Assembly: GCA_028748975.1 (NCBI GenBank)
Contig: JAQTPI010000001.1
Location: 64,354 to 128,353 of the forward strand
DNA: 64,000 bases
Direction of reading: 5' to 3'
DNA from: Patescibacteria group bacterium
GTDB taxonomy: Bacteria > Patescibacteriota > Patescibacteriia > UBA2196
The notes under the pieces are model-generated. The model was given only the letters and a program-made list of their open reading frames with translations. It ran no database searches and was not told the origin of the DNA. This document shows, piece by piece, positions 8,713 through 53,718 of this stretch. Positions within the stretch are counted from its first letter, which is position 1. The number at the start of each line of letters is the position of its first letter. Both the position numbers and the translations under genes were made by a program.

Positions 8713-8784
8713 AATCTCTGTCTTCATGGAAATAACAGAACTTGTTAACTCGTTAACTCGTTAATAAAATAACTTTAAAATTTA

Positions 8785-8835: not shown

Positions 8836-8842
8836 TTGCGGG

Positions 8843-11800
8843 CTATTTCACCGCCACGCTGCCTTCGCCGGTGATTTCTTCAATCCGCGCTTTCAGCGCG
8901 TCGCTATACTTAATTTTATAACTTGTTTGGATTTTGCGCAACACGCCGGTTTGTTCCACTGTCAGCATCACCTGGTGATTGCCCGGGTGTTCCAAAAACA
9001 CCGCTTTGATTTGCAAATGAATTTCCGTATTAAAATATTTTGGCAATTTAATCCAGACCTGATTGGCCACTGCTGTGTAAGCCACTGGCGCGGCCGGTTT
9101 GTTGTAGCGCGGAGCGTAGAAACCATTACCGCTATTACTATTATTACTGCTATTGCTATTATTATTTTTATTACTGTATCCGTTTCCGTTCGCCAGCGCT
9201 TTCTCTGCCGTGGTCAAAATTTCCTCCGCCGTTTCTGGGAAAATTTGAAAAGCGCTGTCCACCAAAACCTTGGCCTCATCATCTTTATAAGATAATTTTC
9301 CAACTACCACCACTGGCCGTCCTTCCACCCAAAGTTCGCTGGTCTTTTTCAAAACCGAAGGGAAAACAATAATTTCCAAGCCCGAATTCAAATCTTCCAA
9401 ACCCACAAAAAGCATGGGCTCGTTGGTTTTGGTAAATATTTTTTTAATGGTGCTGATAATGCCGGCGGAAATTATTTTTTCTTCGCGATTAATAGCTTTA
9501 ATTTCATTTAAAGAACGCACGCGCCCGGTTAATAAAGTAGCAACCTCTGCAAAGGGGTGGCTGGAAACATAAAGTCCGAGTAATTCTTTTTCCCACTGCA
9601 GTTTGGTTTTGATGTCAGTTGCTGCGGTGGCTTTTAGATTTAGTGGCAGCAAACCCGGGTCTTCGCCTGCTTTTGGTGCGGTAGCGAAGAGCGAGGTTTG
9701 CCTGTCGTCCGTTTCTTTCTTGCTGTTTTTAATATACCCCAAAATCAAATCCATATTGGCCATAATGGTGCCGCGTTCGGCAAAAGAATCCAAAGCCCCG
9801 CTCATAGCGAGCGCTTCCAATGATTTTTTATTTAAAGTCCGGCCCTGCACGCGCTTCAGCAAGTCCTCAAAAGATTTAAAGGGGCCATTTTTTTCGCGCT
9901 CGGCCACGATGACGTTGATGACATCAGCTCCCAAATTCTTGATGGCCAAAAAACCAAAACGAATTTCCGCGTCGGAAATGTAAGTAAAATTCAGGCGCGA
10001 CTCGTTAATGTCCGGCGGTAAAATTTTAATGCCCATTTTTTTGGCTTCCTGCACTGCCGCCGCCACTTTTTCCGCGTCATCCGATTCCATGCTCAAAACC
10101 ATGGTCATGTATTCAGTGGGGAAATTAGCTTTTAAATAAGCTGTCAAATAGGCGACAATGCCATAAGAAGCGGCATGCGCCTTGTTGAAACCATAAGCCG
10201 CGAAGGGTTTTATTAATTCCCAAAGAGCGTCTGTTTTTTCTTGGCTAAGTCCACCCGCCACGCAGCCGGCCTTGAATTTGTCTTCCTGCGCCATCATTTC
10301 CGCTGGAATTTTTTTGCCCATGGCTTTTCTAAATTTATCCGCTTCGTCCCAGTTATAGCCGGCCAGATGAATGGCCGAAAGCATAATGTCTTCTTGATAA
10401 ATCAAAAGTCCAAGCGACATATCCAAAACATCTTTCATTCGGGGGTCGGGGTAAGTAACCAGGGTCGGATTGTGTTTGCGCCGGATGAATTCCGGAATGG
10501 ATTCCATCGGTCCTGGGCGATAAAGCGCCACCATGGCCATAATGTCAAAAATATTAGTCGGTTTTAAATCAATTAAATATTTAGTCATGCCGGAGGAAGA
10601 AAGCTGGAAAACGCCAATGGTTTCACCCTTGGCCAAAAGTTCGTATGTTTTTTTGTCATCAAAAGGAACTTTGGCCAAATCAATTTCCACGCCCTTGGTT
10701 TTTTTAATCAGTTTAATCGCTTCACCCATAATAGACAAGTTGGTGATGCCCAAAAAATCAAATTTCAAAAGCCCGGCCGCTTCGGCCGCGCCCATTTCAT
10801 ATTGCGTGATTTTTTTGCGCCCAGATGGATCGCGCTGCAGCGGCACAAATTCCGTAATTTTTCTTGGCGCGATTAAAACTCCCGCGGCGTGGATGGAAGT
10901 GTGCCGGCAGCAACCCTCAATTTTTTGCGCCAATTCAATAATGCGTTTGGCGTCCGGATTATTTTCATACTCCATTTTTAATTCCGGATTAATTCCCATG
11001 GCCGCTTCAATAGTCATGGCGAAACCCTGCGAACCAAAAGGAATCATTTTGGCCAATTTGTCGCCGTATTCATACGGGATGCCGAGCGCCCGCGTCACAT
11101 CGCGGACCGAACCCCTCGCCATCATGGTGCCAAAGGTGCAAATCTGCGCCACTTTATCCGCGCCGTATTTTTTGGTGGCGTATTCAATCATTTCATCGCG
11201 GCGGTTGTCGGCAAAATCCATGTCAATATCCGGCGGCGACGGACGGAAAGGATTTAAAAAACGTTCAAAAGGCAATTTAAAAGCAATCGGGTCAATCGTG
11301 ATAATGCCAATGGCAAAACTGACGAGTGAACCAGCGGCCGAGCCTCTCGTGGTCATGACAATGCCGTTTTCTCTGGACCAGTTGATTAAATCCGCCACTA
11401 CCAGAAAATATGGCGCGTAGCCCTTCTTAATGATAATTTCCAGTTCATATTCCAATCGTTCCAGATAATTTTGGGGAGTATTGGGAATTTTTTTAGAAAG
11501 ACCATCGCGCGCGTTTTCTCGAAGCACTTCTTCCGCGGTTTTATTTTCCGGCAATTCAATCGCTGGAAAATTCCACTTGCCCAACTCCAATTTCACTTCG
11601 CATTGGTCAGCGATTTTTGCCGTGTTTTCAATCGCGCCGGGATATTTTTTGAATTTTTCTTCCATCACTTCCGGCGAAGCAAAAGAACAGTCAAATTCCA
11701 GCATGGACAGCCGGCCGGGCGTGTCCACGGTGGAGCCGGTGTTGATGGCCAGCATCACGTCCTGGGCTTCCGCGTCAACTTTATTAATATAGTGAGAATC

Positions 11801-12486: not shown

Positions 12487-12660
12487 ACCCCTCCCAAACC
12501 CTCCCCTTAGTAAGGGGAGGAGCTTACGATGAGCTCCCCTCCTTTATAAGGAGGGGGTTGGGGGAGGTATTTGTATATTCGCCGCTAGGCGCGTCGCCAT
12601 CTCCTCCTTAAGAAGGAGGAGACCAAGAGGAGGTTAACTCGCCGATAGGCGCATATAATT
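12487..12660. repeat. family R3 composite module
   Basis: ccctccccttagtaaggggagg, cccctcctttataaggaggggg, ctcctccttaagaaggaggag and aactcgccgataggcgcatataatt. Confidence 0.7.
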
Positions 12661-21573: not shown

Positions 21574-21646
21574 AAACGCGCTTTTTATTTTCGATTTTTT
21601 TGGTTTATTAGATTATTAAATTATCAGATTATTATTTTATTATTGG

Positions 21647-22754: not shown

Positions 22755-22855
22755 ATCGAAGCGATGGGTAATAAAGATATAAGGAAATAAGGATATAAAA
22801 GGTTGGTTCTATATTTCCTTATATCTTTATATCCCTATATCTTTTCTATAAAATT

Positions 22856-28076: not shown

Positions 28077-28108
28077 TGAAAAATGAAAAATAAATAATAT
28101 TTTTAATA

Positions 28109-28140
28109 TGGGCGGTTTTAAAACCCGCCCTTTTGATTTT
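28109..28140 (+). terminator. intrinsic terminator after gap
   Basis: gggcggttttaaaacccgccc followed by a T-run. Confidence 0.75.
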
Positions 28141-28154
28141 TTTAAAAATAGTAT

Positions 28155-28188
28155 ATCCACATCAATCACGATCGTGATTGATGTGGAT
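28155..28188. promoter_or_regulatory. 34-bp perfect palindrome (candidate operator)
   Basis: atccacatcaatcacgat|cgtgattgatgtggat. Shares its TCACGATCGTG core with the palindrome at 38251-38286. Confidence 0.4.
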
Positions 28189-28302
28189 GTTGGAGAAAAT
28201 AAAAAAGCCACCAGTGAGCGAGCGCTCTTGATTTTAATTTTTATTTACGCTAAGATAAAAGCGTTAGTTAAAACAAATAAAAAATCAAACAGGAGGTCAA
28301 AG

Positions 28303-28635
28303 ATGGAGGAAAAATTAAAGTCGTGCGGAATTCAAATATCGCTAATCCCAAAAAATAAACTAGCAAGAGATTATAGGTGCAGAACAGAAGGTTGTGAGAC
28401 TCAACTCTTTACTTTTAATGCCGCCGAATCTGAAGAAAAAAATGTATATCAAGATGTGGTTGGTTTTACATTTACAAAGGGAACTGATTTTTTAGGTTTT
28501 TTACCCAGCGAGGGGGTTTGGGTTTTAAGGTGTCCATATTGTAATAAATATTATTGGACGCACGCGTATGATGTAGAAATTGATATATTAAAAGAAATTC
28601 AACTGTGGGACAAGTCAACAAAGCATTTAAAATAA
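28303..28635 (+). CDS. hypothetical zinc-ribbon protein
   Basis: Start at the internal Met with a CAGGAGG site. Has a CxxC...CPYC arrangement. The ORF-track start at 28108 reads through the gap terminator and is rejected. Confidence 0.4.
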   Translation: MEEKLKSCGIQISLIPKNKLARDYRCRTEGCETQLFTFNAAESEEKNVYQDVVGFTFTKGTDFLGFLPSEGVWVLRCPYCNKYYWTHAYDVEIDILKEIQLWDKSTKHLK

Positions 28636-28667
28636 AACAATATTTTAGATGCTTTTTATTTTGTAAT

Positions 28668-28694
28668 TTAGCACTCTCTTGACGAGAGTGCTAA
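28668..28694 (+). promoter_or_regulatory. CIRCE operator (HrcA binding site)
   Basis: Perfect TTAGCACTC-N9-GAGTGCTAA immediately upstream of hrcA. Confidence 0.9.
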
Positions 28695-28786
28695 TAATAA
28701 TATATAATGAATATAGAAACCAAAAAACAGGCTATTTGAGCTTAAAAATGGCTAAATTAGCCCATAAATTTGTGTGGATAACCCCT

Positions 28787-29467
28787 ATGAACGACCGACA
28801 AAAGGAATTGCTAAAAATAATTGTGGAAGAATACATTAAGACCGCCGAGCCGGTAGGGTCAAAGTTATTGGTGGAAAAATATGGATTAAACTTTTCACCG
28901 GCGACAGTTCGAAATGACATGGCGGAATTGGAAGCGCAAAATTTAATCGCCCAGCCCCACACTTCAGCCGGCCGAGTACCGACTGAAGCTGGCTATCGCT
29001 GTTACATTAAAAATTACGTTGATTTAAAAAGCGAGTTGACGGAAAGCAAGAAAGATAAAATTTCCGCCAAAGGCGAAGTCGTTAAAGGTGAAAGCGATGA
29101 AAAAATAAAAACCCTAGCCAAAGTTTTGGCAGAAGAATCAGGACTCGCGACTTTTGTGGTTTTTGACGAGCACAATGTTTTCTATACCGGACTCACCAAT
29201 ATTTTTTCCCAGCCGGAATTTCGCGATTTGGATTTGATTTATGACATGTCGCGCGTGCTGGATCATTTGAGCGAAGTCATGGATGAAATTTATCCCGAGA
29301 TTGGCGAAGAGGTGGAAATTAAAATCGGTTTGGAAAATCATTTGGCCAAAGATTGCGCCGCGGTCATGGTTAGGTCGGGTGATATGATTTTGGGGATGGT
29401 CGGGCCGATGCGGATGAATTATAAGCAGAATATTGGTTTGATGAATTTTATTAAGAGTATAATTTAA
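28787..29467 (+). CDS. hrcA: heat-inducible transcription repressor HrcA
   Basis: The block [26 protein letters not shown]...[13 protein letters not shown]...[12 protein letters not shown] aligns to the HrcA N-terminus. A perfect CIRCE element lies at 28668-28694. Confidence 0.85.
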
Positions 29468-29469
29468 GA

Positions 29470-29560
29470 GCTACGAATGTACGAATAAAACGAATTTACA
29501 AATAAATCACAAAATTATTCTGCGGCCATTCGTATATTCGTACGATTCGTAAATTTGTAG
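29470..29560. repeat. family R4 inverted array between hrcA and grpE
   Basis: gctacgaatgtacgaataaaacgaat...attcgtatattcgtacgattcgtaaatttgtag. Same terminal sequences as 3795-3884. Confidence 0.75.
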
Positions 29561-29567
29561 ATTTTTT

Positions 29568-30083
29568 ATGCATAAACACAAAGAACAACAAAATGAAAAT
29601 CAGGCGGAGCCAAAAGATAAGTGTCCGCAATGTGATGAATACCTCAACGGCTGGAAGCGCGCTTTGGCTGATTATGAAAATTTGAAAAAACAGACGGCTA
29701 AAGAAAAAGAAGAGTTTGCCAAGTTCGCCAACACCAATTTAATCATCGGTTTGATTCCAGTTTATAACAACCTCAAAATTTCTTTTGGCCATCTACCAGC
29801 AGATTTAAAAAATAATAATTGGGTTAAAGGAATTGAACACATCAGAAAACAAATGTTGGATGTTTTGGAATTCAATGGCGTGGAAGAAATTGTGCCGAAA
29901 ATTGGCGAGAAGTTTAATCCGGAGCTGCACGAAGCGGTGAAGAGTGAAGAGCAAATAGTGAATAGTGAACAGATAACAGACGACAAACAACAAACAACAG
30001 ATCATAAAATAGTAAAAGTTTTGAGTGATGGTTACAAATTAAACGGCCGGGTGTTTATGCCGGCGAAAGTGGTTGTCGCTTAA
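29568..30083 (+). CDS. grpE: nucleotide exchange factor GrpE
   Basis: GrpE coiled-coil and C-terminal beta region, directly downstream of hrcA. Confidence 0.88.
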   Translation: MHKHKEQQNENQAEPKDKCPQCDEYLNGWKRALADYENLKKQTAKEKEEFAKFANTNLIIGLIPVYNNLKISFGHLPADLKNNNWVKGIEHIRKQMLDVLEFNGVEEIVPKIGEKFNPELHEAVKSEEQIVNSEQITDDKQQTTDHKIVKVLSDGYKLNGRVFMPAKVVVA

Positions 30084-30096
30084 ACCCAAAAAAATG

Positions 30097-30136
30097 TCAT
30101 TCCGAATCAGCCAGCAGGCGGAGAGGAATCTCGTTA
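30097..30136 (+). repeat. family R1 variant, 3' of the grpE stop
   Basis: gtcattccgaatcagccagcaggcggagaggaatctcgtt. Confidence 0.6.
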
Positions 30137-30195
30137 TCTCCCCCTTAAGAAGGGGGAGCGCGAGGGGGTCAACTCGCCGCTAGGCGCGTATAATT
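30137..30195. repeat. family R3 module
   Basis: atctcccccttaagaagggggagcgcgagggggtcaactcgccgctaggcgcgtataatt. Confidence 0.65.
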
Positions 30196-30197
30196 AA

Positions 30198-30242
30198 CGA
30201 GATCCCTCGTCGTCCCGAAGCGCCGGGACTCCTCGGGATGAC
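30198..30242 (-). repeat. family R1 element
   Basis: cgagatccctcgtcgtcccgaagcgccgggactcctcgggatgac. Confidence 0.7.
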
Positions 30243-30257
30243 AATCACCTATGAATT

Positions 30258-30548
30258 ATGGACACTCTAACTTCCCACACCCTCCATCTCATAAAAAATT
30301 GTCCTGTTTGCAAGGCCAAGTTTGGCGAGGGGCAAATTAGCGTCGTGGAAAAAGATGAGGAAGGCAAAGCCACGGTTTTGTTAAGTTGTCAGAATTGTCA
30401 AAGCGCGCTTTTGGCGCGGGTGGTGGAAATGCCGTTTGGAATTTTAGGCACGGCCTCTTTGACTGACATTCAGGCGAGTGAAGTTAAAAAATTCGCGGCC
30501 GGTGGCAAAGTGACGTTTGATGATGTGCTGGATTTGTATGGAAAATAA
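30258..30548 (+). CDS. hypothetical zinc-ribbon protein
   Basis: CPVC...CQNC arrangement. Lies between grpE and dnaK. Confidence 0.4.
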   Translation: MDTLTSHTLHLIKNCPVCKAKFGEGQISVVEKDEEGKATVLLSCQNCQSALLARVVEMPFGILGTASLTDIQASEVKKFAAGGKVTFDDVLDLYGK

Positions 30549-30559
30549 TTTTTTTGGTT

Positions 30560-30596
30560 GTCATCCTGAGCGAAGCGAAGGATCCTGTGGCCGAAG
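30560..30596 (+). repeat. family R1 element
   Basis: gtcatcctgagcgaagcgaaggatcctgtggccgaag, followed by the taataaagatataaggatataaa module. Confidence 0.65.
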
Positions 30597-30696
30597 AGAA
30601 AAAGTAATAAAGATATAAGGATATAAAGAAATAAAAGGAAAAGGTTCTTTAAAAACAAAAAAACCACCGAGGTGTGATTCGGTGGCGAGATGAAAA

Positions 30697-30870
30697 TCAT
30701 TTTATAAAAACGATTTCCAGTTTTTTTGTTTGTCTACAATTCTGACAAGTTGGAACTGGTTTCCCTGTCTTGGAGTTCATAGTCATATTGAAATACGGAT
30801 TGCTTTCGGTAAATTTTTCGCTGCATTGTCCGCAGTGGGTTGGTCTTTTTTCTTCTCCAACTGGAATCAT
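30697..30870 (-). CDS. hypothetical small zinc-ribbon protein (downstream gene of an overlapping pair)
   Basis: 57-aa ORF not in the ORF track (too short). Has CGQC...CQNC. Its ATG overlaps the stop of the upstream gene (ATGA), with an AAGGAGG site inside the upstream gene. Confidence 0.4.
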   Translation of the reverse strand: MIPVGEEKRPTHCGQCSEKFTESNPYFNMTMNSKTGKPVPTCQNCRQTKKLEIVFIK

Positions 30871-31067
30871 GGTTTCCTCCTTAATTCCCCGATGATTTGG
30901 GCGTTGAGTCTGGTGCAGATTCGATCAGCCTTTTCAAAAGGAAGATTTCTATATTTCTCAACAATTTTCCACCTTTTTCTCACAACACCTCCTTCTTTTT
31001 TAACCTGATAGAGCTCTGTCTCTCCGCCGAAATGCATCATATAATACCGGTGAATGCAGAATAGCAT
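30867..31067 (-). CDS. hypothetical small protein (upstream gene of an overlapping pair)
   Basis: 66-aa ORF with a TAAGGAGG site. Translationally coupled to the 30697-30870 ORF. Confidence 0.4.
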   Translation of the reverse strand: MLFCIHRYYMMHFGGETELYQVKKEGGVVRKRWKIVEKYRNLPFEKADRICTRLNAQIIGELRRKP

Positions 31068-31149
31068 AGCACTTCCTCCTTAATGTTTGATTGTTTAGGT
31101 TCTGTGGTCTAATTACATCTTAGACCCCGGAAGTTAAAAAGTCAAATTT

Positions 31150-31250
31150 AGAAAAGTAACAAGGTAACAGAGTAACAGGGTAACAAAGGAGACCAGAACC
31201 TTTATTACTTTGTTACTTTATTACTCTGTTACCAAAAATTATAATTAATT
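31150..31250. repeat. inverted phased array of GTAACA / TGTTAC units upstream of dnaK (R7)
   Basis: agtaacaaggtaacagagtaacagggtaacaaagg...cctttattactttgttactttattactctgttacc. Confidence 0.65.
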
Positions 31251-31308
31251 TTCTCTTTGGGCTTAAAGGCAGAAACCTTCCCTAAAGGGAGTAAGAATAG
31301 AAAAATAT

Positions 31309-33198
31309 ATGCCAAAAATTATCGGAATCGATCTTGGTACAACCAATTCCTGCGTTGCCATCATGGAAGGTGGCGCGCCAAAAATTTTGGAAAACAAAGA
31401 AGGCAACCGCACCACGCCCTCCATTGTCGCCATGAGCAAATCCGGCGAACGATTGGTCGGTCTTTTGGCCAAGCGCCAAGCCGTCACCAACCCCACCAAT
31501 ACTTTGTTTTCCATCAAGCGCTTAATCGGCCGCCATTTTGACGATGCCGAAGTTCAGCGCGACATCAAGACCATGCCGTTTAAAATCAAGCAGGCCGGCG
31601 CCGGCGTGAAAGTGGAAATGAGCGGTAAAGATTACACTCCGCAGGAAATTTCCGCCATGGTTTTGCAAAAAATCAAAGCTGATGTGGAGGAAAAACTTGG
31701 TGAAAAGATTGAAGAAGCGGTCATCACTGTGCCGGCATATTTTGATGATTCGCAAAGACAAGCGACCAAAGAAGCTGGAGAAATCGCTGGGCTAAAAGTG
31801 CGCCGAATTATTAATGAACCGACCGCGGCTGCTTTGGCTTATGGTTTTGATAAAAAGAAAGGCCAGCAAATTGCCGTCTACGATTTGGGCGGCGGAACTT
31901 TTGATATTTCCATTTTGGATATTTCGGCCGATACGGTGGAAGTAAAATCCACCAATGGCGACACGCATCTTGGCGGCGACGATTTTGACCAAAAAATTAT
32001 GAACTGGATTTTGGATGAATTCAAAAAACAGGAAGGCATTGATTTAAGCAAAGACCCGATGGCTCTCCAGCGCGTCAAAGAAGCGGCGGAAAAAGCTAAA
32101 ATTGAACTTTCCACCGCGCAGGAAACGGAAATTAATCAGCCCTTTATCACTTCCGGCGCCGAAGGCCCCAAACATTTGCTTTTGAAAATGAGCCGCGCCA
32201 AATTGGAAGAATTGGTGGGTGAATTTGTAGAAAAAACTTTGGAGCCAGTCAAAAAAGCCTTGTCTGATGCTGGTATGAAAACTGGCGATATTGAAGAAGT
32301 AATTATGGTAGGTGGCATGACCCGAATGCCACTTGTCCAACAAACAGTAGAAAAGTTTTTTGGTAAAAAAGTAAATATGTCGGTTAATCCGGATGAAGTG
32401 GTGGCGGCCGGCGCCGCGGTGCAAGCCGGCGTGCTGCAGGGCGATGTCAAAGATGTTTTGCTTTTGGATGTGACACCCTTAACACTTGGTATTGAAACAC
32501 TGGGTAGCGTGGCCACTCCTTTGATTGAAAGAAACACCACCATCCCGACTTCCAAGTCGCAGGTGTTTTCCACCGCGGCGGACAATCAGCCGAGCGTGGA
32601 AATTCATATCGTTCAAGGCGAACGCTCCATGGCGCATGACAATAAAACTTTGGGCCGGTTTATTTTGGATGGCATCATGCCTTCTCCGCGCGGCATTCCG
32701 CAAATTGAAGTCACTTTTGACATTGATGCTAATGGCATTTTAAACGTCAAAGCCAAAGACAAAGGCACTGGCAAAGAACAGCACATCACCATTACCGCCT
32801 CCACCGGTTTAAACAAAGATGAAATTGAAAAGATGAAAAAAGACGCCGAAGCGCACGCGGAAGAAGACAAAAAAAAGAAAGAGGGGATTGAAATTAAAAA
32901 TCTGGCCGAGACTTTGATTTATTCCACGGAGAAAGCCATGAAAGACGCTGGCGATAAAATTGGCGCTGACATCAAAAAGCCGGTGCAAGAAAAAATTGAG
33001 GCCTTGAAGAAAATTAAAGATGGGGAAGATTTTGAAGCAATTAAAAAAGCCACAGAAGAACTGGCCGGGGCCGCGCAGAAAATTGGGGAAGCGATTTATA
33101 AAACTCAGCAAGCAACTAACAACAAGCAACAGACAACGGAAGAAAAACCGGCTGAAGAAAAAAAGCCGGAAGAGGCGGAGTTTACGGAGAAGAAGTAA
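31309..33198 (+). CDS. dnaK: chaperone DnaK (Hsp70)
   Basis: [18 protein letters not shown] and the rest of the Hsp70 signatures. Confidence 0.95.
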
Positions 33199-33207
33199 CA
33201 CCGCAGT

Positions 33208-33249
33208 GTCATCCTGAGTCCCGAGCACTCGGGGCGAAGGATCTCGTTG
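33208..33249 (+). repeat. family R1 element, 10 nt after the dnaK stop
   Basis: gtcatcctgagtcccgagcactcggggcgaaggatctcgttg. Confidence 0.75.
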
Positions 33250-33348
33250 TAGAATTATGAATTAAGAATTAAGGACGGCGGGCCGACATTCGTCGGCCCG
33301 CCGCAGCTCACGTTTGTCATTCCGGGCTTGACCTGGAATCCAGAAAAA

Positions 33349-33696
33349 ATGAACAAATTTAAATTATTGGCGGATGTTTGTGTAGTGTTCCATTTTTTAT
33401 GGATTGTTTTGATTTTGCTAAGCTTACCGTTAATGTTTGTTTTTGATTTTTTTAAATACATAGCGATACTTCTTATATTTGGCAATATTTTGGCTTGGAT
33501 TGTTTGGAAGGTTTGCCCTTTATTTATTTGGGAGAAAAAATTAAGAGCTAAATATGATAAATCAAAAGTTTATGATGAGGCATTTATCACGCATTATGCT
33601 AAAAAATATTTAGGTATTTATATTTCCACAACAGTAATAAGAATTTTTCTCTATAGCTACGGATTATTAGTTTTAATTATTGCTTTAAATAAATAA
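33349..33696 (+). CDS. hypothetical membrane protein
   Basis: Three or four transmembrane segments. The start is taken at the internal Met downstream of a repeat element. Confidence 0.4.
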   Translation: MNKFKLLADVCVVFHFLWIVLILLSLPLMFVFDFFKYIAILLIFGNILAWIVWKVCPLFIWEKKLRAKYDKSKVYDEAFITHYAKKYLGIYISTTVIRIFLYSYGLLVLIIALNK

Positions 33697-33702
33697 AAAA
33701 GC

Positions 33703-33735
33703 CGTCGGTAGCGACGGCTGTGGGTGCTGCGATGA
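33703..33735 (-). terminator. intrinsic terminator for the 33741 gene
   Basis: agccgtcg-gtag-cgacggct followed by a T-run on the minus strand. Confidence 0.6.
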
Positions 33736-33740
33736 ACTAT

Positions 33741-34307
33741 TTATTTCTTTTGACGCATTTTTTGGCAGACCATTTCCGCCAGCTGAAATGTTAATTCCAG
33801 TTTTTTGCGGTGCATTTCGCGCCGCCATTTAGGAAAGATTAATTGTTCAATGTGATATTTCCGATAAGCCGGCCAGTTTCCATGCGCGGTGGGCAAATCT
33901 TCTGGGTAAAGGAAAAAAGCCAAAAGGTAATCATGTTGTCGAAAACCAGGATAGAGAACAGTGTAATGCTCAGCCGCGCCCATTCCTCCGCCGCCGGCAC
34001 CGGGTTCCGAATTCCACGCGCCGTCAATCTCATAAAACTTTTCCCATTGTTTTTCCACCTTTTTCCGCCACTCTTCCCACGCTTCTTCTATTAGTCTTTG
34101 AAAATCATACTTTTCAATTTTCGCGATTTCATTCAAATCCGGCTGCCGACTGATATAATAGAGCACCAAATCCATTACATCGCTAAACTCAATATTTTTT
34201 AGAAAATGGTCGCCCGTATAAACCCTACCCTTGTTTTGCAGAGTCGCGTCCGTGCTCTTTTCAATCAGCTCTAAAACGATTTCTTTTGGTGTTTTGACTG
34301 TCATCAA
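33741..34307 (-). CDS. hypothetical protein
   Basis: 188-aa ORF with a GAGGGGGA site. A terminator hairpin follows at 33703-33735. Confidence 0.5.
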   Translation of the reverse strand: MMTVKTPKEIVLELIEKSTDATLQNKGRVYTGDHFLKNIEFSDVMDLVLYYISRQPDLNEIAKIEKYDFQRLIEEAWEEWRKKVEKQWEKFYEIDGAWNSEPGAGGGGMGAAEHYTVLYPGFRQHDYLLAFFLYPEDLPTAHGNWPAYRKYHIEQLIFPKWRREMHRKKLELTFQLAEMVCQKMRQKK

Positions 34308-34342
34308 ATCCCCCTCGTTTGTTGTTTTTCCTCTGATGTGAA

Positions 34343-34513
34343 TTAGATAATAAAAACAACCTCTGCGCCGACGAAATTCGCCGCTTCAACCAAAAAATTT
34401 TCATCATCCTTTTTTTGATTGAATTTTTCAGTGTTGATTGAAATTCCATTACTTCTGTTGGCCCTGTCCAGAATATTTTGAATGGTTTGGGGTTTGTTGA
34501 TTTGTTTGGCCAT
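34343..34513 (-). CDS. hypothetical small protein
   Basis: 56-aa ORF with a strong AAAGGAGG site. The overlapping ORF in the track (34261-34545) is in another frame and is disfavoured. Confidence 0.35.
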   Translation of the reverse strand: MAKQINKPQTIQNILDRANRSNGISINTEKFNQKKDDENFLVEAANFVGAEVVFII

Positions 34514-34694
34514 AAAAACCTCCTTTTGTTTGTTTTTCCTCCCAATATAAATTGTGCTTTTATCTTATCATTAATAATTAAATCCTGTCAAGCGGCAGAA
34601 AATAATATTTGTCATTCCGGCCCGAGAGCCGGAATCCAGAAATTGTTTCTCTGGATTCCCGCTTTCGCGGGAATGACAAAGAAAGAAAATTTTT

Positions 34695-34973
34695 ATGGAC
34701 AATCAAAATCAAATCCAAATTAAAGATCCTTTTGCTGGTGCCGAATATGCTAATGTGATGAACATTAATTCCAGTAAAGAAGAGTTTTTGTTGAACTTTT
34801 TTAATATTGCCGGTGCGAATGGCAGGGTAGTTGGTAAAATAATCGTCAGCCCCAGGCACTTAAAAAGAATGTCTGGCGTGTTAACTAAAGTATTAAAAGA
34901 TTATGAAGAAAAGTTTGGTAAACTTGAAGAAGCCAATGAACCAAATACGGAAATAGGTTTTAAAGCCGAATAA
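34695..34973 (+). CDS. hypothetical small protein
   Basis: 92-aa ORF between two repeat elements, upstream of dnaJ. Confidence 0.45.
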
Positions 34974-34976
34974 AAC

Positions 34977-35022
34977 TGACGAGATCCCACCACCCCACAA
35001 ATGTGGGGTTCGGGATGACAAC
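34977..35022 (-). repeat. family R1 element
   Basis: ctgacgagatcccaccaccccacaaatgtggggttcgggatgacaa. Confidence 0.7.
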
Positions 35023-35025
35023 CAT

Positions 35026-36168
35026 ATGAGTAATAAAAATTATTACGACACTCTCGGCGTTTCCAAAACCGCCACATCAGACGAAATAAAGAAGGCCTTC
35101 AGAAAGCTTGCTCACGAACACCACCCCGACAAAAAAGGCGGCAACGAGGCCAAGTTTAAAGAAATTAACGAGGCCTATCAGGTTTTGGGCAATGAGGAAA
35201 AAAGAAAACAATACGACCAGTTTGGCCAAACTTTTAGTAATGGCGCTGGTGGATTTAATGCAGGCGGATTTAACGGCCAAGGATTTAATTGGCAGGATTT
35301 TGCGCGTCAAGCTGGCGGACAAGGAAATTTTGGCGGGCAAAATTTTGATTTTGATTTGGGCGATATTTTTGGCGATTTTTTTTCCGCCCGAGGCGGATCC
35401 GCCTTTGGCGGAGGTGGGAGACATAAACGTGGCCAACAAAGAAGCGGAGAAGACATTGAAGTCCAAATAAACATTGGTTTTCGTGAAGCGGTTTTTGGCG
35501 CGGAAAAAATTATTTCTTTAGAGCGCCAAGATGTTTGTGAAAAGTGTAATGGTAAAGGACACGAAGCTGGCGTGAAAATTATTACTTGTCCCGAGTGTAA
35601 AGGTGTGGGCCAAGTTCGCCAGGAACAGCGCACAATTTTTGGCGTGTTTGCTTCCGTGGGCGTCTGCCCAACTTGCGCGGGCGTTGGCAAAAAGCCGGAA
35701 AAGTTTTGTTCTAAATGTCATGGCGCTGGCCGAACCAAAAATAAAAAAGAAATTAAAATTGAAATTCCAGCCGGGATTGATGAAGGCCAAAGCATTAAAA
35801 TTTCCAACGCTGGCAACGCGGGCGAAAAGGGGAGCGCTGCCGGTGATTTATATATTTCTTTTCAAATTCGCCCTGATAAAATTTTCACGCGCGAAGGCGA
35901 GAATATTTTGACTAAAATTGAAATAAATATCGCGCAGGCGGCGCTTGGTGATAAAATAGAAGTGGAAACTCTGGACGGAATTGTCGAAATGAAAATTCCC
36001 GAGGGCACGCAATCAGGCAAAATTTTTATTTTGAAAGACAGAGGCGTGCCGATTTTAAACAGCCATGGCAGGGGGGACCAGTTAGTGGAAGTAGTGGTAA
36101 AAATTCCAACAAAATTATCGCGCAAAGAAAAGCAGTTGCTGGAAGAATTGAAAAATGAGTGGCGGTAG
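35026..36168 (+). CDS. dnaJ: chaperone DnaJ
   Basis: J-domain with HPD, a G/F-rich linker and four CxxCxGxG zinc-finger repeats. Confidence 0.9.
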
Positions 36169-36174
36169 TTTGTA

Positions 36175-39557: not shown

Positions 39558-40022
39558 ATGTCTATTGATGAAATGGAACTGATTAAAAAAGTAGAATATG
39601 AGGCGCCACCGGAGGCGGCGCCGGATTTTGGCGTAGAAAGCGAAACGGGGAAGGGACTGGAAAATAAGCCAGAGGTAATGCCGGAACAAGAAGCGCCGGG
39701 CGCGTTTGCTGGCATTCCGGTACCACTAAGCGCGCCACAGCCAACAGCCAAAGACCCTGTTGTTGCGAGCGTGGAAAACATTTTGGAAGAAAATTTGGCC
39801 GATCTTTACATAAATTTATCGCCCCAAGAGCAAGCGCGATTCAAAGCCAAGGGCGAAGAAACCACCAAAAAAATTGTGGAGCTTTTGCGCTCTGCCAAAG
39901 CCACTTTCAAAAAAATATTCAATCTGATTTTCGGCTGGCTGAAAATCATTCCCGGCATTAATAAATTTTTCATGGAACAGGAAGCCAAAATCAAGGCAGA
40001 TAAAATAATCAAGCTACATTAA
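39558..40022 (+). CDS. hypothetical acidic protein
   Basis: 154-aa ORF downstream of an extended -10 TGGTATAAT. Confidence 0.45.
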   Translation: MSIDEMELIKKVEYEAPPEAAPDFGVESETGKGLENKPEVMPEQEAPGAFAGIPVPLSAPQPTAKDPVVASVENILEENLADLYINLSPQEQARFKAKGEETTKKIVELLRSAKATFKKIFNLIFGWLKIIPGINKFFMEQEAKIKADKIIKLH

Positions 40023-40045
40023 TTGTTAGATTGTTGAATTGTTAA

Positions 40046-40170
40046 ACAACCACCCCGGCTCGGTCTGTTGACCTCGCCAACCCCTCCTTCGAAAGGAGGG
40101 GATATTGGTCGCTATCCTCCCCTTTCGAAGGGGAGGTGTTCCGCCGCAGCGGAACGGAGGGGTTGTAATA
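40046..40170. repeat. family R3 composite module
   Basis: Same architecture as 8070-8228: cccctccttcgaaaggagggg...cctcccctttcgaaggggagg flanked by ccgc..gcgg arms. Confidence 0.7.
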
Positions 40171-40202
40171 ATTGAACAATTTAGCAATTTAGCAATTAAA
40201 TA

Positions 40203-42743
40203 ATGCCAAATTATTTACCCTCATCTCCCTTGGAACCAAACCTATTAAGCAACCCATCCTTTGCCGTCTTTTTATTTTTACTCGGCATTCTCGTCCTAAT
40301 TTTTGTGGCGCTTTTAATTTACCGCAATTATTTGCGGCGGCACTATAAAATCCCGGCCAAATATCAGCCGGCGGTGCTTTTAATTACCGTGCCGAAAGAA
40401 GCGGCTGGCGATAAGAATCAGTCTGGTAATCTGACCGAAACCATGCGTTCGCAAATCGCCTGGGCCGAAGGATTTTTAACTCAGCTCGGTTCCATCAAGC
40501 CGCAAAAAGGCTTTAAGGCCTGGCTCTATGGCCGTCATGATAATTTGGCTCTGGAAATTGTGGCGCATCAAAAATTAATTTCTTTTTACGTGGTGGTGCC
40601 AGAGTATCTTAAGCAATTTCTGGAACAGCAGCTGCTGGCCCAGTACCCGAGCGCCCAAGTGGAAGAAGCAGAGGATTATAATATCTTCACTCCCAAATCT
40701 TTTGTCGCCTCGGCCAATCTGCAATTGGGTAAAAATTCCATGTTCCCGATTAAAACTTATCGTGAATTTGATAATGACCCCCTGAACGCCATCACCAATG
40801 TCTTAAGCAAACTGGAAGACACCGCTGGCGCCGTGGTCCAAATTTTAATTCGTCCGGCGCCGAGAAATTGGCACGATTATGGCTTGAAAGTTGTCACTGC
40901 TATGCAGCAGGGCAAACCTCTGAAAAAAGTTTTGAAAGCGCAGGAAGCGGACATTTTTAGCGCGCTCAGTAAAACTTACAATTTTTTTGCCGGTCCTGCG
41001 GCTAAAAAGGAAGACAATCAAATGGCGCCGGGGGTTTACCGCCTTTCGCCCATGGAAGAAGAAATGATTAAAAAAATTCAGGCCAAAAGTTCCAAAGCTG
41101 GTTTGCAATCCAACATTCGCGTGGTGGTTTCCTCGGAAAATTATCAGGCGCCGGATATCTACCTTCATAATATTTTAAATTCTTTTGGGCAGTACAACAT
41201 CACTGAATATGGCAATAATTTCAAAATCAGTAAAGCCAAAAGCAATGACCGCATTGTTTCGGAATCCATCCACCGTATTTTTGATAATAACCGTTCTTTC
41301 ATCTTGAACACGGAAGAGTTGGCATCGCTCTATCATTTTCCTCTGCCCACTTGCGAAACTCCCAATATTCGCTGGCTTTTGGCGCGTAAAGCCGCTCCGC
41401 CAATTAATATTCCGCCCACAGGAATTGTTTTAGGAAAAAATAATTTTCGCGGGGTGGAAACTTTAATCAGAATGAAAGAAGAAGATCGCATGCGCCATTT
41501 CTATATTATTGGTATGACTGGTACTGGTAAATCCGTTTTGATGGAAGAAATGGCCAAACAAGACATTGCTGAAGGCCGCGGTGTTTGTTTTCTTGACCCG
41601 CATGGCACGGCCATTGACCAAATTTTGCCTTGCATCCCAGAAAATCGTCAAAAAGATGTGGTCTATTTTGACCCCTCCGACGTGGAAATGCCAATTGGTT
41701 TAAATATGCTGGAAGCCAAGACCCAGCAGGAAATGGATTTTGCCGCTTCGGAAATGATTACGATTTTTTATAAACTTCTGCCCGACCCGTCCATGGGCGG
41801 TCCCATGTTTGAACACTACATGAGAAATGCTTTGCTTCTTTTGATGGCCGACCAGGCTGACCCGGGTACTTTGGTGGAATTGGGCCGCGTTTTTACTGAT
41901 GATGAATATCGCGCGGAAAAATTAAAACACACTCGTGATTTGTTGGTGCGTGACTTTTGGGAAAGAGAATATCCGGCCTCCCAGCGGGGGAGCATGGCTT
42001 CCGATATGCTGTCCTATGTTGTTTCCAAAACTGGCCGTTTTGTGGAAAATGAAATGATGAGAAACATCATTGGCCAGTCACGTTCCGGCTTCAATTTCCG
42101 CCAAGTCATGGATGAGGGCAAAATTCTTCTAGTCAATTTGTCCAAAGGAAAAATCGGCGAAATGAATAGTAACTTACTGGGTTTAATTATTGTTTCCAAA
42201 TTGCAAATGGCCGCCATGGGCCGTGCTGATTTGCCGGAAAATCAAAGAAAAGATTTTCTACTCTACATTGATGAGTTCCAAAATTATACCACCGATTCCA
42301 TGTCCACCATTTTGGCTGAAGCCAGAAAATATCGCCTCGGTCTAATTATGGCGCATCAATACATCGGCCAGTTGGTGAAGGGCCAGGACACTTCCATCCG
42401 TGACGCGGTTTTCGGCAACGTCGGCACGCTCGCTGTTTTCCGCATTGGCGCCGAAGACGCGGAATTTTTGGCCAAACAATACGCCCCGGTCTTTAATGAG
42501 TATGATTTAATCAATATTGAAAAATTTAACGCTTATGTTAGGCTATTAATAGATAACCAGGCCAGCCGGCCGTTTAATATGGCCACCCTGCCGCCCAGTT
42601 TTGGTAATCCGCAAACAGCAACTTCTATTATTAATAATTCCCGCCAAACCTATGGCCACTCCAAAGCGGAAGTGGAAGCGGAAATTGTGAGAAGGTCAAA
42701 GATAGGAGAGCTTGGCAAGGAAATGGAAGAAGAAGAAAAATAG
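40203..42743 (+). CDS. membrane-anchored P-loop ATPase of the FtsK/HerA superfamily (TraG/VirD4/DUF87-like)
   Basis: N-terminal transmembrane helix, a ~400-aa unknown domain, then Walker A GMTGTGKS and Walker B LLYIDEFQ followed by AHQ. Confidence 0.65.
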   Translation: MPNYLPSSPLEPNLLSNPSFAVFLFLLGILVLIFVALLIYRNYLRRHYKIPAKYQPAVLLITVPKEAAGDKNQSGNLTETMRSQIAWAEGFLTQLGSIKPQKGFKAWLYGRHDNLALEIVAHQKLISFYVVVPEYLKQFLEQQLLAQYPSAQVEEAEDYNIFTPKSFVASANLQLGKNSMFPIKTYREFDNDPLNAITNVLSKLEDTAGAVVQILIRPAPRNWHDYGLKVVTAMQQGKPLKKVLKAQEADIFSALSKTYNFFAGPAAKKEDNQMAPGVYRLSPMEEEMIKKIQAKSSKAGLQSNIRVVVSSENYQAPDIYLHNILNSFGQYNITEYGNNFKISKAKSNDRIVSESIHRIFDNNRSFILNTEELASLYHFPLPTCETPNIRWLLARKAAPPINIPPTGIVLGKNNFRGVETLIRMKEEDRMRHFYIIGMTGTGKSVLMEEMAKQDIAEGRGVCFLDPHGTAIDQILPCIPENRQKDVVYFDPSDVEMPIGLNMLEAKTQQEMDFAASEMITIFYKLLPDPSMGGPMFEHYMRNALLLLMADQADPGTLVELGRVFTDDEYRAEKLKHTRDLLVRDFWEREYPASQRGSMASDMLSYVVSKTGRFVENEMMRNIIGQSRSGFNFRQVMDEGKILLVNLSKGKIGEMNSNLLGLIIVSKLQMAAMGRADLPENQRKDFLLYIDEFQNYTTDSMSTILAEARKYRLGLIMAHQYIGQLVKGQDTSIRDAVFGNVGTLAVFRIGAEDAEFLAKQYAPVFNEYDLINIEKFNAYVRLLIDNQASRPFNMATLPPSFGNPQTATSIINNSRQTYGHSKAEVEAEIVRRSKIGELGKEMEEEEK

Positions 42744-46323: not shown

Positions 46324-46408
46324 GCATGAAAACATAAAAGCATTAAAGCATGAAAACAATTCCTTATTGATTTGTTTTAATGCTCTAGTGTTTTAATGTT
46401 TTAATGTT

Positions 46409-47287
46409 ATGGCTATCCATAAATCAGTTTTATTGAAAGAGGTTTTAGAATATTTAAATCCGGAACCAAACCATAATTTTATTGATTGTACTTTCGGCGG
46501 TGGGGGACACAGCCGGGAAATCTTGAAAAGAATCGCGCCAGCTGGTAAACTTTTGGCCATTGATGCGGATGCTGAAACCAGAAATCAGAAACCAGAAATC
46601 AGGGATGACAAAAATTTTATCTTTGTCAACGCTAACTTCCGCGATTTGGAAAACATTGTCAAAGAAAATTTTCCTTACCCTGTTAATGGAATTCTGATGG
46701 ACTTGGGGCTTTCTTCGGATCAATTGGAATCTTCCGGCCGCGGTTTCACTTTTCAAAAAGATGAGCCCCTGGACATGCGCTTTGATACTCGCAAAGAAAC
46801 CAAAGCGGCTGACATCCTTAATTTTGGTTCTCTAGATTATTTAAAAAATATATTTGAAAATTACGGCGAAATTCGCCCAGCGGAAAAATTGGCCAGAAAA
46901 ATTATTGATTTAAGAAAACAAAAGAAATTTCAGACCACCTTTGATCTGGTGGCGGCGGTGGACGAAGCGGGCATTAAATCTCGCAGTCCCAAAATTAATT
47001 CGGCCACGCTGGCTTTTCAGGCGCTGCGCCTCGCGGTCAATGATGAACTGGGCGCCCTGAAAAATGTTTTGCCCGCGGCTCTAAATGTTTTAGCGCCCGG
47101 CGGCCGGTTGGCTGTAATTTCTTTTCACGCCCTGGAAGATAAAATTGTCAAAAATGTTTTTCGTGATTGGTACAAAGCCGGGGCGGTCAGACTTTTAACC
47201 AAAAAACCAGTCGCGCCGAGTTGGGAAGAAGTGAAAACGAATAATAGAAGTCGTAGTGCTAAATTAAGGGTGATTGAAAAAATATAA
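46409..47287 (+). CDS. rsmH: 16S rRNA m4C1402 methyltransferase RsmH (MraW)
   Basis: FIDCTFGGGGHS SAM motif, directly downstream of mraZ. Contains an in-frame tandem repeat (gaaaccagaaatca x2) at 46570-46600. Confidence 0.9.
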   Translation: MAIHKSVLLKEVLEYLNPEPNHNFIDCTFGGGGHSREILKRIAPAGKLLAIDADAETRNQKPEIRDDKNFIFVNANFRDLENIVKENFPYPVNGILMDLGLSSDQLESSGRGFTFQKDEPLDMRFDTRKETKAADILNFGSLDYLKNIFENYGEIRPAEKLARKIIDLRKQKKFQTTFDLVAAVDEAGIKSRSPKINSATLAFQALRLAVNDELGALKNVLPAALNVLAPGGRLAVISFHALEDKIVKNVFRDWYKAGAVRLLTKKPVAPSWEEVKTNNRSRSAKLRVIEKI

Positions 47288-47289
47288 AA

Positions 47290-47380
47290 TGCGAATTATT
47301 ACAAATTTTGTGCGAATTTTACGAACAGATTATTTGATGTTTATTCGCACAATTCGCAGGTAATTCGCCATTAATTCGCA
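47290..47380. repeat. family R4 inverted array after rsmH
   Basis: tgcgaattattacaaattttgtgcgaattttacgaac...attcgcacaattcgcaggtaattcgccattaattcgca. Confidence 0.75.
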
Positions 47381-47865: not shown

Positions 47866-47950
47866 AACTCAAAACTCAAGGAAAGGAAAACAGAAATTAG
47901 AAATCAGAAAACAGGGAAATCCTGATTACTAATTTCTGATTTCTGATTAC
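47866..47950. repeat. inverted array of GAAATCAG units preceded by AAAACTCAAAACTCA (R8)
   Basis: cagaaattagaaatcagaaaacagggaaatcctgattactaatttctgatttctgattac. The AAAACTCAAAACTCA unit recurs at 60900. Confidence 0.55.
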
Positions 47951-49751: not shown

Positions 49752-49881
49752 TAATTTTTTTATAGCCTGCCCTGAGCGCTAGCGAAGGGCACCAGCCGAA
49801 TTTTGGGGAGGCAATATTAAAATCGCTAGAACCATCAAAAAATCCCTTTGTTACTCCGTTACTTTGTTACTTTATTATTCA

Positions 49882-52756: not shown

Positions 52757-52852
52757 CGTCTGCGAAACATCGTAGACGCCCGCCAGCCCATTTTCCTAAT
52801 CGGTAGTGATAAACTAGTGGTTAGAAAAATGGGCAAACGACCCAGAAGTTTC
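52757..52852 (+). repeat. island direct repeat, copy 2 (R5)
   Basis: 96 bp with 3 mismatches to copy 1. Preceded by a GC-rich hairpin. Confidence 0.8.
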
Positions 52853-52901: not shown

Positions 52902-53603
52902 ATGAAGAAGTTGTTTGTGGTTTTAATGGCGGTCGTTATTTTGACCCCCGTGATTTGTCTTGCCGGTAGCAGTGAAAAATTCGAGCAAATTGGTGAGCCG
53001 TTTTTGATTATTGTTCCTGCGGATTACCATCACGACACCTACATGGAGTCGTTTGGTAAAAAATATAGTTCAGAATTTCCCAACTACCGTAGCTCTGGCG
53101 TGACTGCTGACAAATTCAGTCAGGTCACAACCAAGCTTTTGCCGAATCAAAAACTCGCGGTTACGGTCTACTTGGTGAAGTCCTGGACAATTTCAAGACA
53201 AGAAATCATAACATTTCTGAAAGCCAATAATGCCTTTCTCGTTGGAGCTCAGGGCTTGGCCTTGACCTTTGAACAAAAGCGTGATCAACTTCCCATAGGG
53301 TGTATCACTTCTTTTGATCAGAAAGAACACCTCTGGCGAGACATCGAAGGACACACAATGGAATTGAAGCTGTTTAAATTTGGACCCCCTAATGAATACC
53401 ATCCCGCTTTCGATTCTTGGCTTGGCCCTTCAGATGCATTAAACATCGGAGATATTTTTTTTCTTTGTTTTCGTGATGGTTTTACCGCGGTTGAAAAGAA
53501 ACAAAACGAAATCGCGGTTGAAAAGAAACAAAACGAAATCAAAGATCTGGAGGAAAAACTCGCTAAGGCAAAAGAAGAATTAGAAAGACTGAGTGGAAAG
53601 TAA
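52902..53603 (+). CDS. hypothetical secreted coiled-coil protein (island gene 2)
   Basis: AAGGAGGAAGAAATG site and a signal peptide. The C-terminus carries a duplicated AVEKKQNEI unit from a 27-bp tandem repeat. Preceded by island repeat copy 2. Confidence 0.5.
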   Translation: MKKLFVVLMAVVILTPVICLAGSSEKFEQIGEPFLIIVPADYHHDTYMESFGKKYSSEFPNYRSSGVTADKFSQVTTKLLPNQKLAVTVYLVKSWTISRQEIITFLKANNAFLVGAQGLALTFEQKRDQLPIGCITSFDQKEHLWRDIEGHTMELKLFKFGPPNEYHPAFDSWLGPSDALNIGDIFFLCFRDGFTAVEKKQNEIAVEKKQNEIKDLEEKLAKAKEELERLSGK

Positions 53604-53661
53604 AAATTTCGTTAACAATCAATACTGGCGCGCCTATTCTTAACAGAATAGTCCGCGCCAG

Positions 53662-53718
53662 CCCATTTTCCTAATCGGTAGTGATAAACTAGTGGTTAGA
53701 AAAATGGGCAAACGACCC
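53662..53718 (+). repeat. island direct repeat, copy 3 (R5, 57-bp core only)
   Basis: Identical hairpin core cccattttcctaatcggtagtgataaactagtggttagaaaaatgggcaaacgaccc, then it diverges. Confidence 0.8.

Follow-up and report, generated by a model that had tools for sequence, protein, structure and literature searches.

An hrcA-grpE-dnaK-dnaJ heat-shock cluster with resident small genes and variable minus-strand cassettes in a Patescibacteria group bacterium

The hrcA-grpE-dnaK-dnaJ operon with its operator, the controlling inverted repeat of chaperone expression (CIRCE), comprises the class I heat-shock genes of Bacillus and Clostridium. We analysed the corresponding locus in a 64-kb stretch of DNA from a Patescibacteria group bacterium (contig JAQTPI010000001.1 of assembly GCA_028748975.1, positions 64,354 to 128,353; 64,000 nucleotides, hereafter the window, whose first letter is position 1). 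The window resembles the Bacillus/Clostridium operon in its CIRCE, which has the exact consensus and overlaps a sigma-70-type promoter preceding hrcA, and in the order of the four genes. The Firmicutes loci that we compared are compact, whereas the window adds a small zinc-ribbon gene (zn96), a DUF3467 gene, two antisense cassettes and a membrane protein gene, and a contiguous operon is not evident. Its HrcA is also about 110 aa shorter (226 aa versus 338 aa in 1STZ).

The form common in Patescibacteria, as seen in the long contigs L085-L088 and about 80 metagenomic loci, is hrcA-grpE-hsp20-dnaK-DUF3467-dnaJ. With this form the window shares a single CIRCE, a short hrcA, DUF3467 immediately 5' of dnaJ and variable spacers. 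It differs in that hsp20 (present in 17 loci) is missing from the cluster, with zn96 in its place, and in the minus-strand cassettes. Two concepts from the literature are relevant to the latter, namely layouts with convergent transcription (excludon-like) and flexible genomic islets of the replacement type, which lie between core genes. As in these, opposite-strand units lie among co-oriented genes, and the flanks are kept while the cargo varies in close relatives. Unlike them, the cargo here amounts to only one to three very small orphan genes, and neither an integrase nor an att-like site was identified.

For comparison we used 80 GrpE-anchored loci, contigs of closer relatives reached through homologs of zn96, DUF2784 and DUF3467, and 80 metagenomic DUF3467 loci; labels such as L007, L083 and L084 denote loci or contigs of these relatives. 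The nearest GrpE among species-representative genomes was 59% identical and came from Patescibacteria-type metagenome-assembled genomes (MAGs).

A class I heat-shock cluster with one operator

The plus-strand genes and the operator region are as follows (Pfam cut-offs, here and below, are gathering cut-offs).

28668-28694: CIRCE operator, a perfect 9-N9-9 inverted repeat, TTAGCACTC-N9-GAGTGCTAA
28679-28708, plus strand: sigma-70-type promoter TTGACG-18-TATAAT, 11/12 consensus positions, overlapping CIRCE with its -35 in the CIRCE spacer
28787-29467, plus strand: hrcA, short form, 226 aa, with an alternative ATG at 28748
29568-30083, plus strand: grpE (PF01025, 1.9e-36)
30258-30548, plus strand: zn96, a CxxC...CxxC small protein between grpE and dnaK, clade-conserved, with host-like codon usage
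31309-33198, plus strand: dnaK (PF00012, 861 bits)
34695-34973, plus strand: DUF3467 gene, 92 aa (PF11950, 59.5 bits, cut-off 25)
35026-36168, plus strand: dnaJ (PF00226, PF00684, PF01556)

This is an ordinary HrcA/CIRCE class I heat-shock cluster in a lineage-typical variant form. When the 64-kb window was scanned with up to three mismatches allowed, the CIRCE in front of hrcA was the sole match (expected number 0). The first-pass annotation of this DNA had described a perfect CIRCE before hrcA, none before dnaK, and the canonical gene order interrupted by other open reading frames (ORFs). All three points held: Pfam confirmed the gene order, and a closer scan of the locus found no additional CIRCE half-site and no CIRCE before dnaK, DUF3467 or dnaJ. 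Its count of eight small ORFs was off by one; every ORF that it listed exists where it was placed, but the list holds seven.

Of the 80 related loci, nearly all have the same CIRCE ahead of hrcA. Among about 45 Patescibacteria loci, L024 was the only one in which dnaK, too, is preceded by a CIRCE, so that most loci rely on one operator. In L024, a Peregrinibacteria MAG, the additional CIRCE carries one mismatch and lies at 11681-11707, directly 5' of dnaK; a second operator has thus been re-acquired or retained in the wider group.

The short form of HrcA was common to all Patescibacteria relatives compared. Only part of the C-terminal (GAF-like) domain is present: the match to PF01628 (53.5 bits) covers just profile positions 101-215, PF03444 scores 23.1 bits (above the cut-off of 21), and the N-terminal winged helix aligns to residues 13-101 of 1STZ (E=1e-19). 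The score against TIGR00331, 183 bits, stays under the cut-off of 197.2, which explains why the NCBI record names the 226-aa protein a 'DeoR family' transcriptional regulator. Patescibacterial HrcA may be systematically misnamed in public records. The HrcA/CIRCE system itself is textbook, and the locus adds little there; what lies between the core genes is of more interest.

Resident genes and variable cargo

In this part of the Patescibacteria, a DUF3467 gene is as a rule found between dnaK and dnaJ. The family is about 95 aa long, and all 126 homologs carried PF11950. In the GrpE-anchored set, each of the 19 profile matches was located within the hrcA..dnaJ cluster and shared its strand. Among 70 metagenomic loci with enough sequence, dnaJ followed within 300 nt in 56, often after 3-25 nt, and further downstream in 10 more; dnaK lay upstream in 51 of 59. 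Given this synteny with both dnaK and dnaJ, we regard DUF3467 as a conserved member of the cluster, and the first-pass view of it as an inserted ORF was not borne out. The DUF3467 protein of the window is only 56% identical to those of L092 (835-1119) and L100 (1329-1611), where dnaK is 94%, DUF2784 90% and dnaJ 72-76% identical. Either DUF3467, or the whole dnaJ-proximal segment, has diverged unusually fast, or it was replaced by recombination.

Invariant or near-invariant motifs of the family are GAEYAN, G(R/K)..GKI..P.H.KR, YE..FG and a C-terminal EIGFK. In an AlphaFold model (predicted local distance difference test, pLDDT, 71.6) the protein forms three strands and one long helix, and confidence is low for the conserved termini; such termini, disordered in the monomer model, would fit partner-binding segments. 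No match was found among PDB sequences, and Foldseek against the PDB returned nothing significant (best E=0.2, TM 0.3). A resemblance to beta-beta-beta-alpha pieces of Hsp70/hexokinase ATPase domains was discarded as insignificant (E at least 0.2, root mean square deviation about 12 A), as was a SecB-like fold, to which hhalign gave a probability of 0.2% against one E. coli SecB sequence. PHROGs yielded only a weak PHROG of unknown function, PADLOC and NCBIfam nothing, and phage tblastn no match. Thus the PDB sequence search, Foldseek and the SecB alignment revealed no similarity to a known co-chaperone. The sole paper on DUF3467 found in the literature searched reports a Porphyromonas DUF3467 protein induced 5-fold by chlorhexidine, beside GroES at 4.75-fold (PMC11986949).

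A role of DUF3467 in the DnaK/DnaJ system is a hypothesis built on guilt by association, the linkage being that seen in Patescibacteria. We suggest tentatively, as something possible rather than probable, that DUF3467 acts as a DnaK-DnaJ accessory (co-chaperone, adaptor or regulator), with zn96 perhaps a second, clade-restricted one; separately, the antisense slots could tune the chaperones by transcriptional interference. Rereading a supposed insert as a conserved dnaJ neighbour across many Patescibacteria gives a testable functional lead, and the dnaK-DUF3467-dnaJ linkage is the most useful one to follow from this locus.

The zinc-ribbon ORF zn96 had likewise been counted among the inserts, which its conservation does not support: it is a clade-conserved resident under purifying selection. 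A homolog search returned proteins 82-93% identical to it. Five close relatives (L083, L084, L090 and L091 among them; 80-91% identity in pairwise alignments) carry the gene at the same place, flanked by grpE and dnaK, as do L007 (33% identity) and L164 (44%). The ratio of non-synonymous to synonymous substitution rates (dN/dS) was 0.10-0.15, compared with 0.06-0.14 for grpE and hrcA. Its structure model (pLDDT 47) was unusable.

The true variable cargo is made up of two minus-strand cassettes, as66-as57 and orf56-orf188, together with the DUF2784 gene. These occupy two slots, zn96|dnaK (slot A) and dnaK|DUF3467 (slot B).

30663-30686, minus strand: intrinsic terminator of cassette A, hairpin AAAAAAACCACCGA..TCGGTGGCG, kept in L084 and L091
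30697-30870, minus strand: as57, zinc-ribbon protein, last gene of cassette A, annotated as PHT40_00525
30867-31067, minus strand: as66, putative first gene of cassette A, with an AAGGAGG Shine-Dalgarno sequence and a 4-nt ATGA overlap with as57
31117-31145, minus strand: promoter of cassette A, TTGACT-17-TAAGAT, in a region conserved with L084
33349-33696, plus strand: DUF2784 membrane protein (PF10861, 37.5 bits, cut-off 29.7)
33700-33719, minus strand: terminator of cassette B, AAAAAAGCCGTCGG..CGACGGC hairpin, the same in L100
33741-34307, minus strand: orf188, near-orphan gene of cassette B, with a good codon signal
34343-34513, minus strand: orf56, cassette B, with a strong Shine-Dalgarno sequence, annotated as PHT40_00545
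34562-34591, minus strand: promoter of cassette B, TTGACA-18-TAAGAT, in a region conserved in L092

The content of slot A differs between close relatives. In L083 (dnaK 92% identical) there is no cassette, and dnaK starts 80 nt after zn96. In L084 the slot holds three different genes on the minus strand (74, 131 and 163 aa) with the same terminator and promoter region, and L091 carries yet another gene set. The terminator hairpin beside zn96 is kept in the window, L084 and L091; the promoter region, the array described below and the box next to dnaK are conserved between the window and L084. Slot B behaves alike. In L100 (dnaK 94%) an unrelated minus-strand ORF of about 65 aa ends at the terminator hairpin that orf188 has in the window. 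In L092, DUF2784, DUF3467 and dnaJ form an uninterrupted run; the promoter region of the cassette and a fragment resembling orf56 are found on the other side of DUF2784, and the breakpoints coincide with GTCATTCCGG...CCGGAATCCAG repeats. The position of DUF2784 varies accordingly: directly 5' of DUF3467 in L092, absent from L100 and L083. A GATase_7 gene replaces cassette B and DUF3467 in L083, and such a gene also lies between dnaK and dnaJ in L016. L090 has its minus-strand gene, of 90 aa, at the grpE|zn96 junction instead. The terminators of both slots are conserved, as are the promoter regions in those relatives where they were readable, whereas the cargo differs or is absent; this points to genes being exchanged rapidly while the core genes around them stay highly conserved. 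The turnover can be followed here base pair by base pair, in a cluster that is essential and belongs to a reduced genome, with the promoter and terminator flanks kept.

The cassette genes have few relatives. As57 is 45% identical to the C-terminus of the 163-aa minus-strand protein of L084 (m163) and also occurs in L091 at the same junction; exhaustive HMMER searches found no credible relatives beyond the L084/L091 clade. We rejected the idea that the longer L084 protein is present here split into as66 and as57, as only the zinc-ribbon part matches. A single homolog of orf188 was found among 5.8 billion proteins, with 51% identity and a different neighbour; orf188 starts with TTG, and the NCBI record begins one codon later. 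None of as57, as66, orf56 and orf188 matched PADLOC, PHROG, Pfam or NCBIfam, so no known defence or toxin-antitoxin component was recognised.

The claim that the cluster is fragmented by insertions stands for two junctions, which hold lineage-specific minus-strand genes. It does not stand for DUF3467 and zn96, which are residents, and fragmentation is a property of the group, since the gaps between grpE, dnaK and dnaJ in relatives span about 20 nt to 4.4 kb. The comparison with relatives that had been proposed for dating the insertions showed cassette cargo turning over within the slots while zn96 and DUF3467 were conserved. The coupled antisense pair at 30697-31067 was also confirmed as two ORFs with an ATGA overlap, though the standing of as66 as a gene is less secure (see below). 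In ten loci (L005, L006, L032, L033, L034, L039, L040, L049, L052 and L067) we observed a multi-pass membrane protein of 260-375 aa without a Pfam domain in the dnaK-dnaJ gap. This protein and GATase_7 are further lineage-specific chaperone companions.

Transcription of dnaK and dnaJ

Two elements lie just 5' of dnaK, and the first-pass annotation had noted one of them, a GTAACA inverted array, as standing in the place of CIRCE.

31153-31232: GTAACA inverted array, GTAACANN x4, with 26-nt arms that are 88% complementary, a long hairpin in the divergent region
31233-31253, plus strand: conserved box AAAAATTATAATTAATTT, candidate dnaK -10 region, near-identical in L083 and L084

The box, AAAAATT(T)ATAATTAATTT, stands 50-65 nt 5' of dnaK and is shared by L083, L084 and the window, whereas elsewhere in the spacer the sequence has diverged or acquired repeats. 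This suggests that the TATAAT box is a CIRCE-less -10 region belonging to dnaK itself. The array is indeed present, and the intergenic region containing it folds with z = -7, but it is one of a generic class and no replacement for CIRCE. A half copy is found at 49849-49877, and an equivalent array in L084. Arrays genome-wide consist of three or four tandem 8-bp units, mostly as inverted pairs forming A+T-rich hairpins of 25-35 bp. Each site has its own 8-mer, and many sites lie just 5' of start codons (mraW, alaS, a TraG-like gene, dnaK). Those in the window are listed here.

3797-3875 and 29471-29560: arrays of one unit type, TACGAATN; the second is an 8-bp-periodic inverted array at the hrcA|grpE junction
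8737-8767, 21600-21644, 22770-22842: further sites
30601-30636: half array
31153-31232 and 49849-49877: GTAACA array and half copy, as above
40022-40046, 40167-40204, 46325-46412, 47304-47365, 47886-47943, 55658-55686, 62223-62288: further sites

Arrays were also found 5' of dnaK in L009, L014, L023, L031, L084, L085-87 and L088, and in L091 at 50-215. Across Patescibacteria the architecture of the arrays is conserved and their sequence is not. They had no Rfam match and no description in the literature searched, and their genome-wide occurrence is a further lead worth following. Since the GTAACA array is one of many that stand before unrelated genes, it is not specific to dnaK, and we rejected it as a dnaK-specific element.

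The account that we consider probable combines this architecture with gene turnover in the slots. Along the plus-strand backbone (CIRCE/promoter, short hrcA, grpE, zn96, then dnaK, then DUF3467 and dnaJ), HrcA on CIRCE would cover the -35/-10 and repress at least hrcA-grpE-zn96. dnaK would have a CIRCE-less promoter of its own that accounts for at least part of its transcription, the most likely arrangement for a gene that lies behind a convergent cassette and next to a conserved TATAAT box, and DUF3467-dnaJ would be a further transcription unit. On dnaK itself, the sequence makes us lean towards at least partial independence of HrcA. The single CIRCE may then no longer cover dnaK and dnaJ, which bears on the control of proteostasis in ultra-small, host-dependent bacteria. 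Several observations weigh against this account. Neither the zn96-dnaK gap nor the dnaK-DUF3467 gap holds a plus-strand intrinsic terminator, the -35 of the candidate dnaK promoter is poor (3/6 at best), and a convincing plus-strand promoter for DUF3467-dnaJ was not found. The slot model is based on five or six relatives, each represented by short contigs from metagenomes. as66 is uncalled in the NCBI record, has weak codon bias and may not be a gene. Finally, the L083 cluster lacks DUF3467, which is therefore dispensable or relocated in some close relatives.

The lack of plus-strand terminator-like sites in the junctions, where the T-runs of the cassette terminators are on the minus strand only, leaves room for read-through from the CIRCE promoter. 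dnaK and dnaJ would then still be controlled by HrcA, with transcripts running through zn96 and both cassettes to dnaJ, internal promoters being minor and the repeats acting as elements for processing or stability, like repetitive extragenic palindromic (REP) sequences, that set the levels of the segments. Compact relatives have dnaK 20-70 nt after grpE, so that co-transcription looks ancestral, and the single operator of most Patescibacteria loci (L024 apart) fits as well. On the other hand, both cassette promoters are near-consensus (TTGACT-17-TAAGAT and TTGACA-18-TAAGAT) and converge on the plus-strand genes, which would lead to collisions with read-through transcription; the 26-bp hairpin and the conserved TATAAT box just 5' of dnaK also speak for a separate start. 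We hold read-through to be rather unlikely. Very improbable, in our view, is that the GTAACA array is a dedicated operator replacing CIRCE for dnaK and bound by the product of as66 or as57. Its position is suggestive, exactly between the divergent promoters and beside the dnaK TATAAT box, in a layout kept in L084. However, the same architecture with other 8-mers precedes mraW, alaS, the TraG-like gene and other sites. L083 has a GTAACA-type array at an unrelated locus and a dnaK without one, and arrays before dnaK were not significantly enriched in relatives (3/46 versus 11/515, p=0.10). The array also persists in L084 though the cassette cargo differs, and neither as66 nor as57 matched a DNA-binding domain.

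Two more general objections concern the preferred account as a whole. The small ORFs might be chance ORFs in repeat-rich non-coding spacers, as could be argued from the codon-usage scores of as66 and as57, which are near zero, from the missing annotation of as66, and from the lack of homologs in the fetched loci for as66 and for orf56 (apart from a 16-aa match at the edge of L092). This is improbable for the set: zn96, DUF3467 and DUF2784 are under purifying selection or in Pfam families, orf188 has its 51% homolog and a good codon score, the Cys pairs of as57 are conserved in the L084 and L091 proteins, and each cassette has a near-consensus promoter, a Shine-Dalgarno sequence and an intrinsic terminator in the right places. 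Repeat-rich MAG contigs can also be misjoined, which would make the mosaic layout an artefact of assembly or binning. An independent Logan assembly contig was 100% identical over 32872-34637, spanning dnaK-DUF2784-orf188-orf56, which argues against an assembly artefact, and equivalent layouts occur at both slots in separate metagenomes; an artefact is thus extremely improbable.

REP-like repeats and neighbouring features

The first-pass annotation had seen repeats at nearly every junction, and this was confirmed. The junctions are hot spots both for REP-like hairpins and for the 8-bp-periodic arrays, and each kind also occurs throughout the genome. We found 18 copies in the window of REP-like elements of 28-56 nt, GTCATYCY-(G+C hairpin)-GGATCY, with eight of them within 30084-35025 (p=3e-5 by length, 1e-4 by intergenic length). 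On a crude ORF map 14 of the 18 lie outside ORFs, and all fold (z -0.8 to -5.5). A long subtype has constant GTCATCCYGA and GGATCTCGT ends and an inner stem that varies with compensating changes. In L083, all nine copies in 20 kb cluster around GAPDH-hrcA-grpE-zn96 (7120-9986). These repeats thus seem to land, or to be retained, preferentially in the heat-shock cluster. We rejected the mini-repeats as carriers of promoters or as an 'RNA thermometer' that sequesters the Shine-Dalgarno sequence; they have no consistent -10 and no real Shine-Dalgarno sequence in the 3' arm.

30096-30242: two REP-like mini-repeats, 30096-30134 (plus strand) and 30197-30242 (minus strand), flanking a CCCCC/GGGGG palindrome
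30560-30588, plus strand: REP-like mini-repeat, followed by the half array at 30601-30636
33208-33344, plus strand: two mini-repeats, 33208-33247 and 33316-33344, around a GC hairpin (33275-33304)
34611-34677: inverted pair of mini-repeats in the DUF3467 leader
34979-35019, minus strand: mini-repeat between DUF3467 and dnaJ

A 22-mer of the window, TCATTCCCGCGAAAGCGGGAAT (34652-34673, minus strand), is identical in a sequence upstream of pilE in Neisseria gonorrhoeae (PMC7593972), which implies the same type of small palindromic repeat in very distant phyla. The repeat that contains it, GTCATTCCCGCGAAAGCGGGAATCCAG at 34650-34677 (minus strand), matches the N. gonorrhoeae repeat in both the 22-mer and the inverted-pair layout. 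With REP-type repeats and the Neisseria repeat CGTCATTCCCGCGAAAGCGGGAATCTAG, the window repeats share conserved ends, a G+C-rich hairpin, multiple copies, intergenic location and inverted pairs. They differ from the Neisseria repeat in phylum, in a long subtype with variable inner stem, and in that no transposase or recombinase was seen. We take the Neisseria repeat to be the one named dRS3/NIME.

The surroundings of the cluster are housekeeping genes: thrS, dnaE, S2/EF-Ts synteny, GAPDH, PBP2, mraW, alaS, corA and a TraG-like ATPase. In the whole window, Rfam gave 0 matches at gathering thresholds, and no tRNA or tmRNA was found; a literature search on CIRCE/HrcA in Patescibacteria and on the repeats returned nothing specific. 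Between GAPDH and CIRCE lies one more small gene.

28303-28635, plus strand: orf110, a small Cys-rich protein without a Pfam match

orf110 has a syntenic homolog in L084 (52% identity, dN/dS 0.28), is absent from L083, and may be the eighth ORF of the first-pass count. A perfect 34-nt palindrome, ATCCACATCAATCACGATCGTGATTGATGTGGAT at 28155-28188, is located between orf110 and the GAPDH terminator hairpin (28110-28130).

Two other palindrome families were observed in the window. One, CCCCTCC/GGAGGGG, occurs at 8131-8190 and 40080-40137, where the 25-nt arms are identical at sites 32 kb apart and the spacers measure 10 and 8 nt; related pieces are at 12535-12622, 30139-30160 and about 57640. The other consists of identical 49-nt hairpins, GCCCATTTTCCTAATCGGTAGT...ACTAGTGGTTAGAAAAATGGGC, at 52786-52834 and 53661-53709, which lie 875 nt apart and flank an ORF at 52902-53603.

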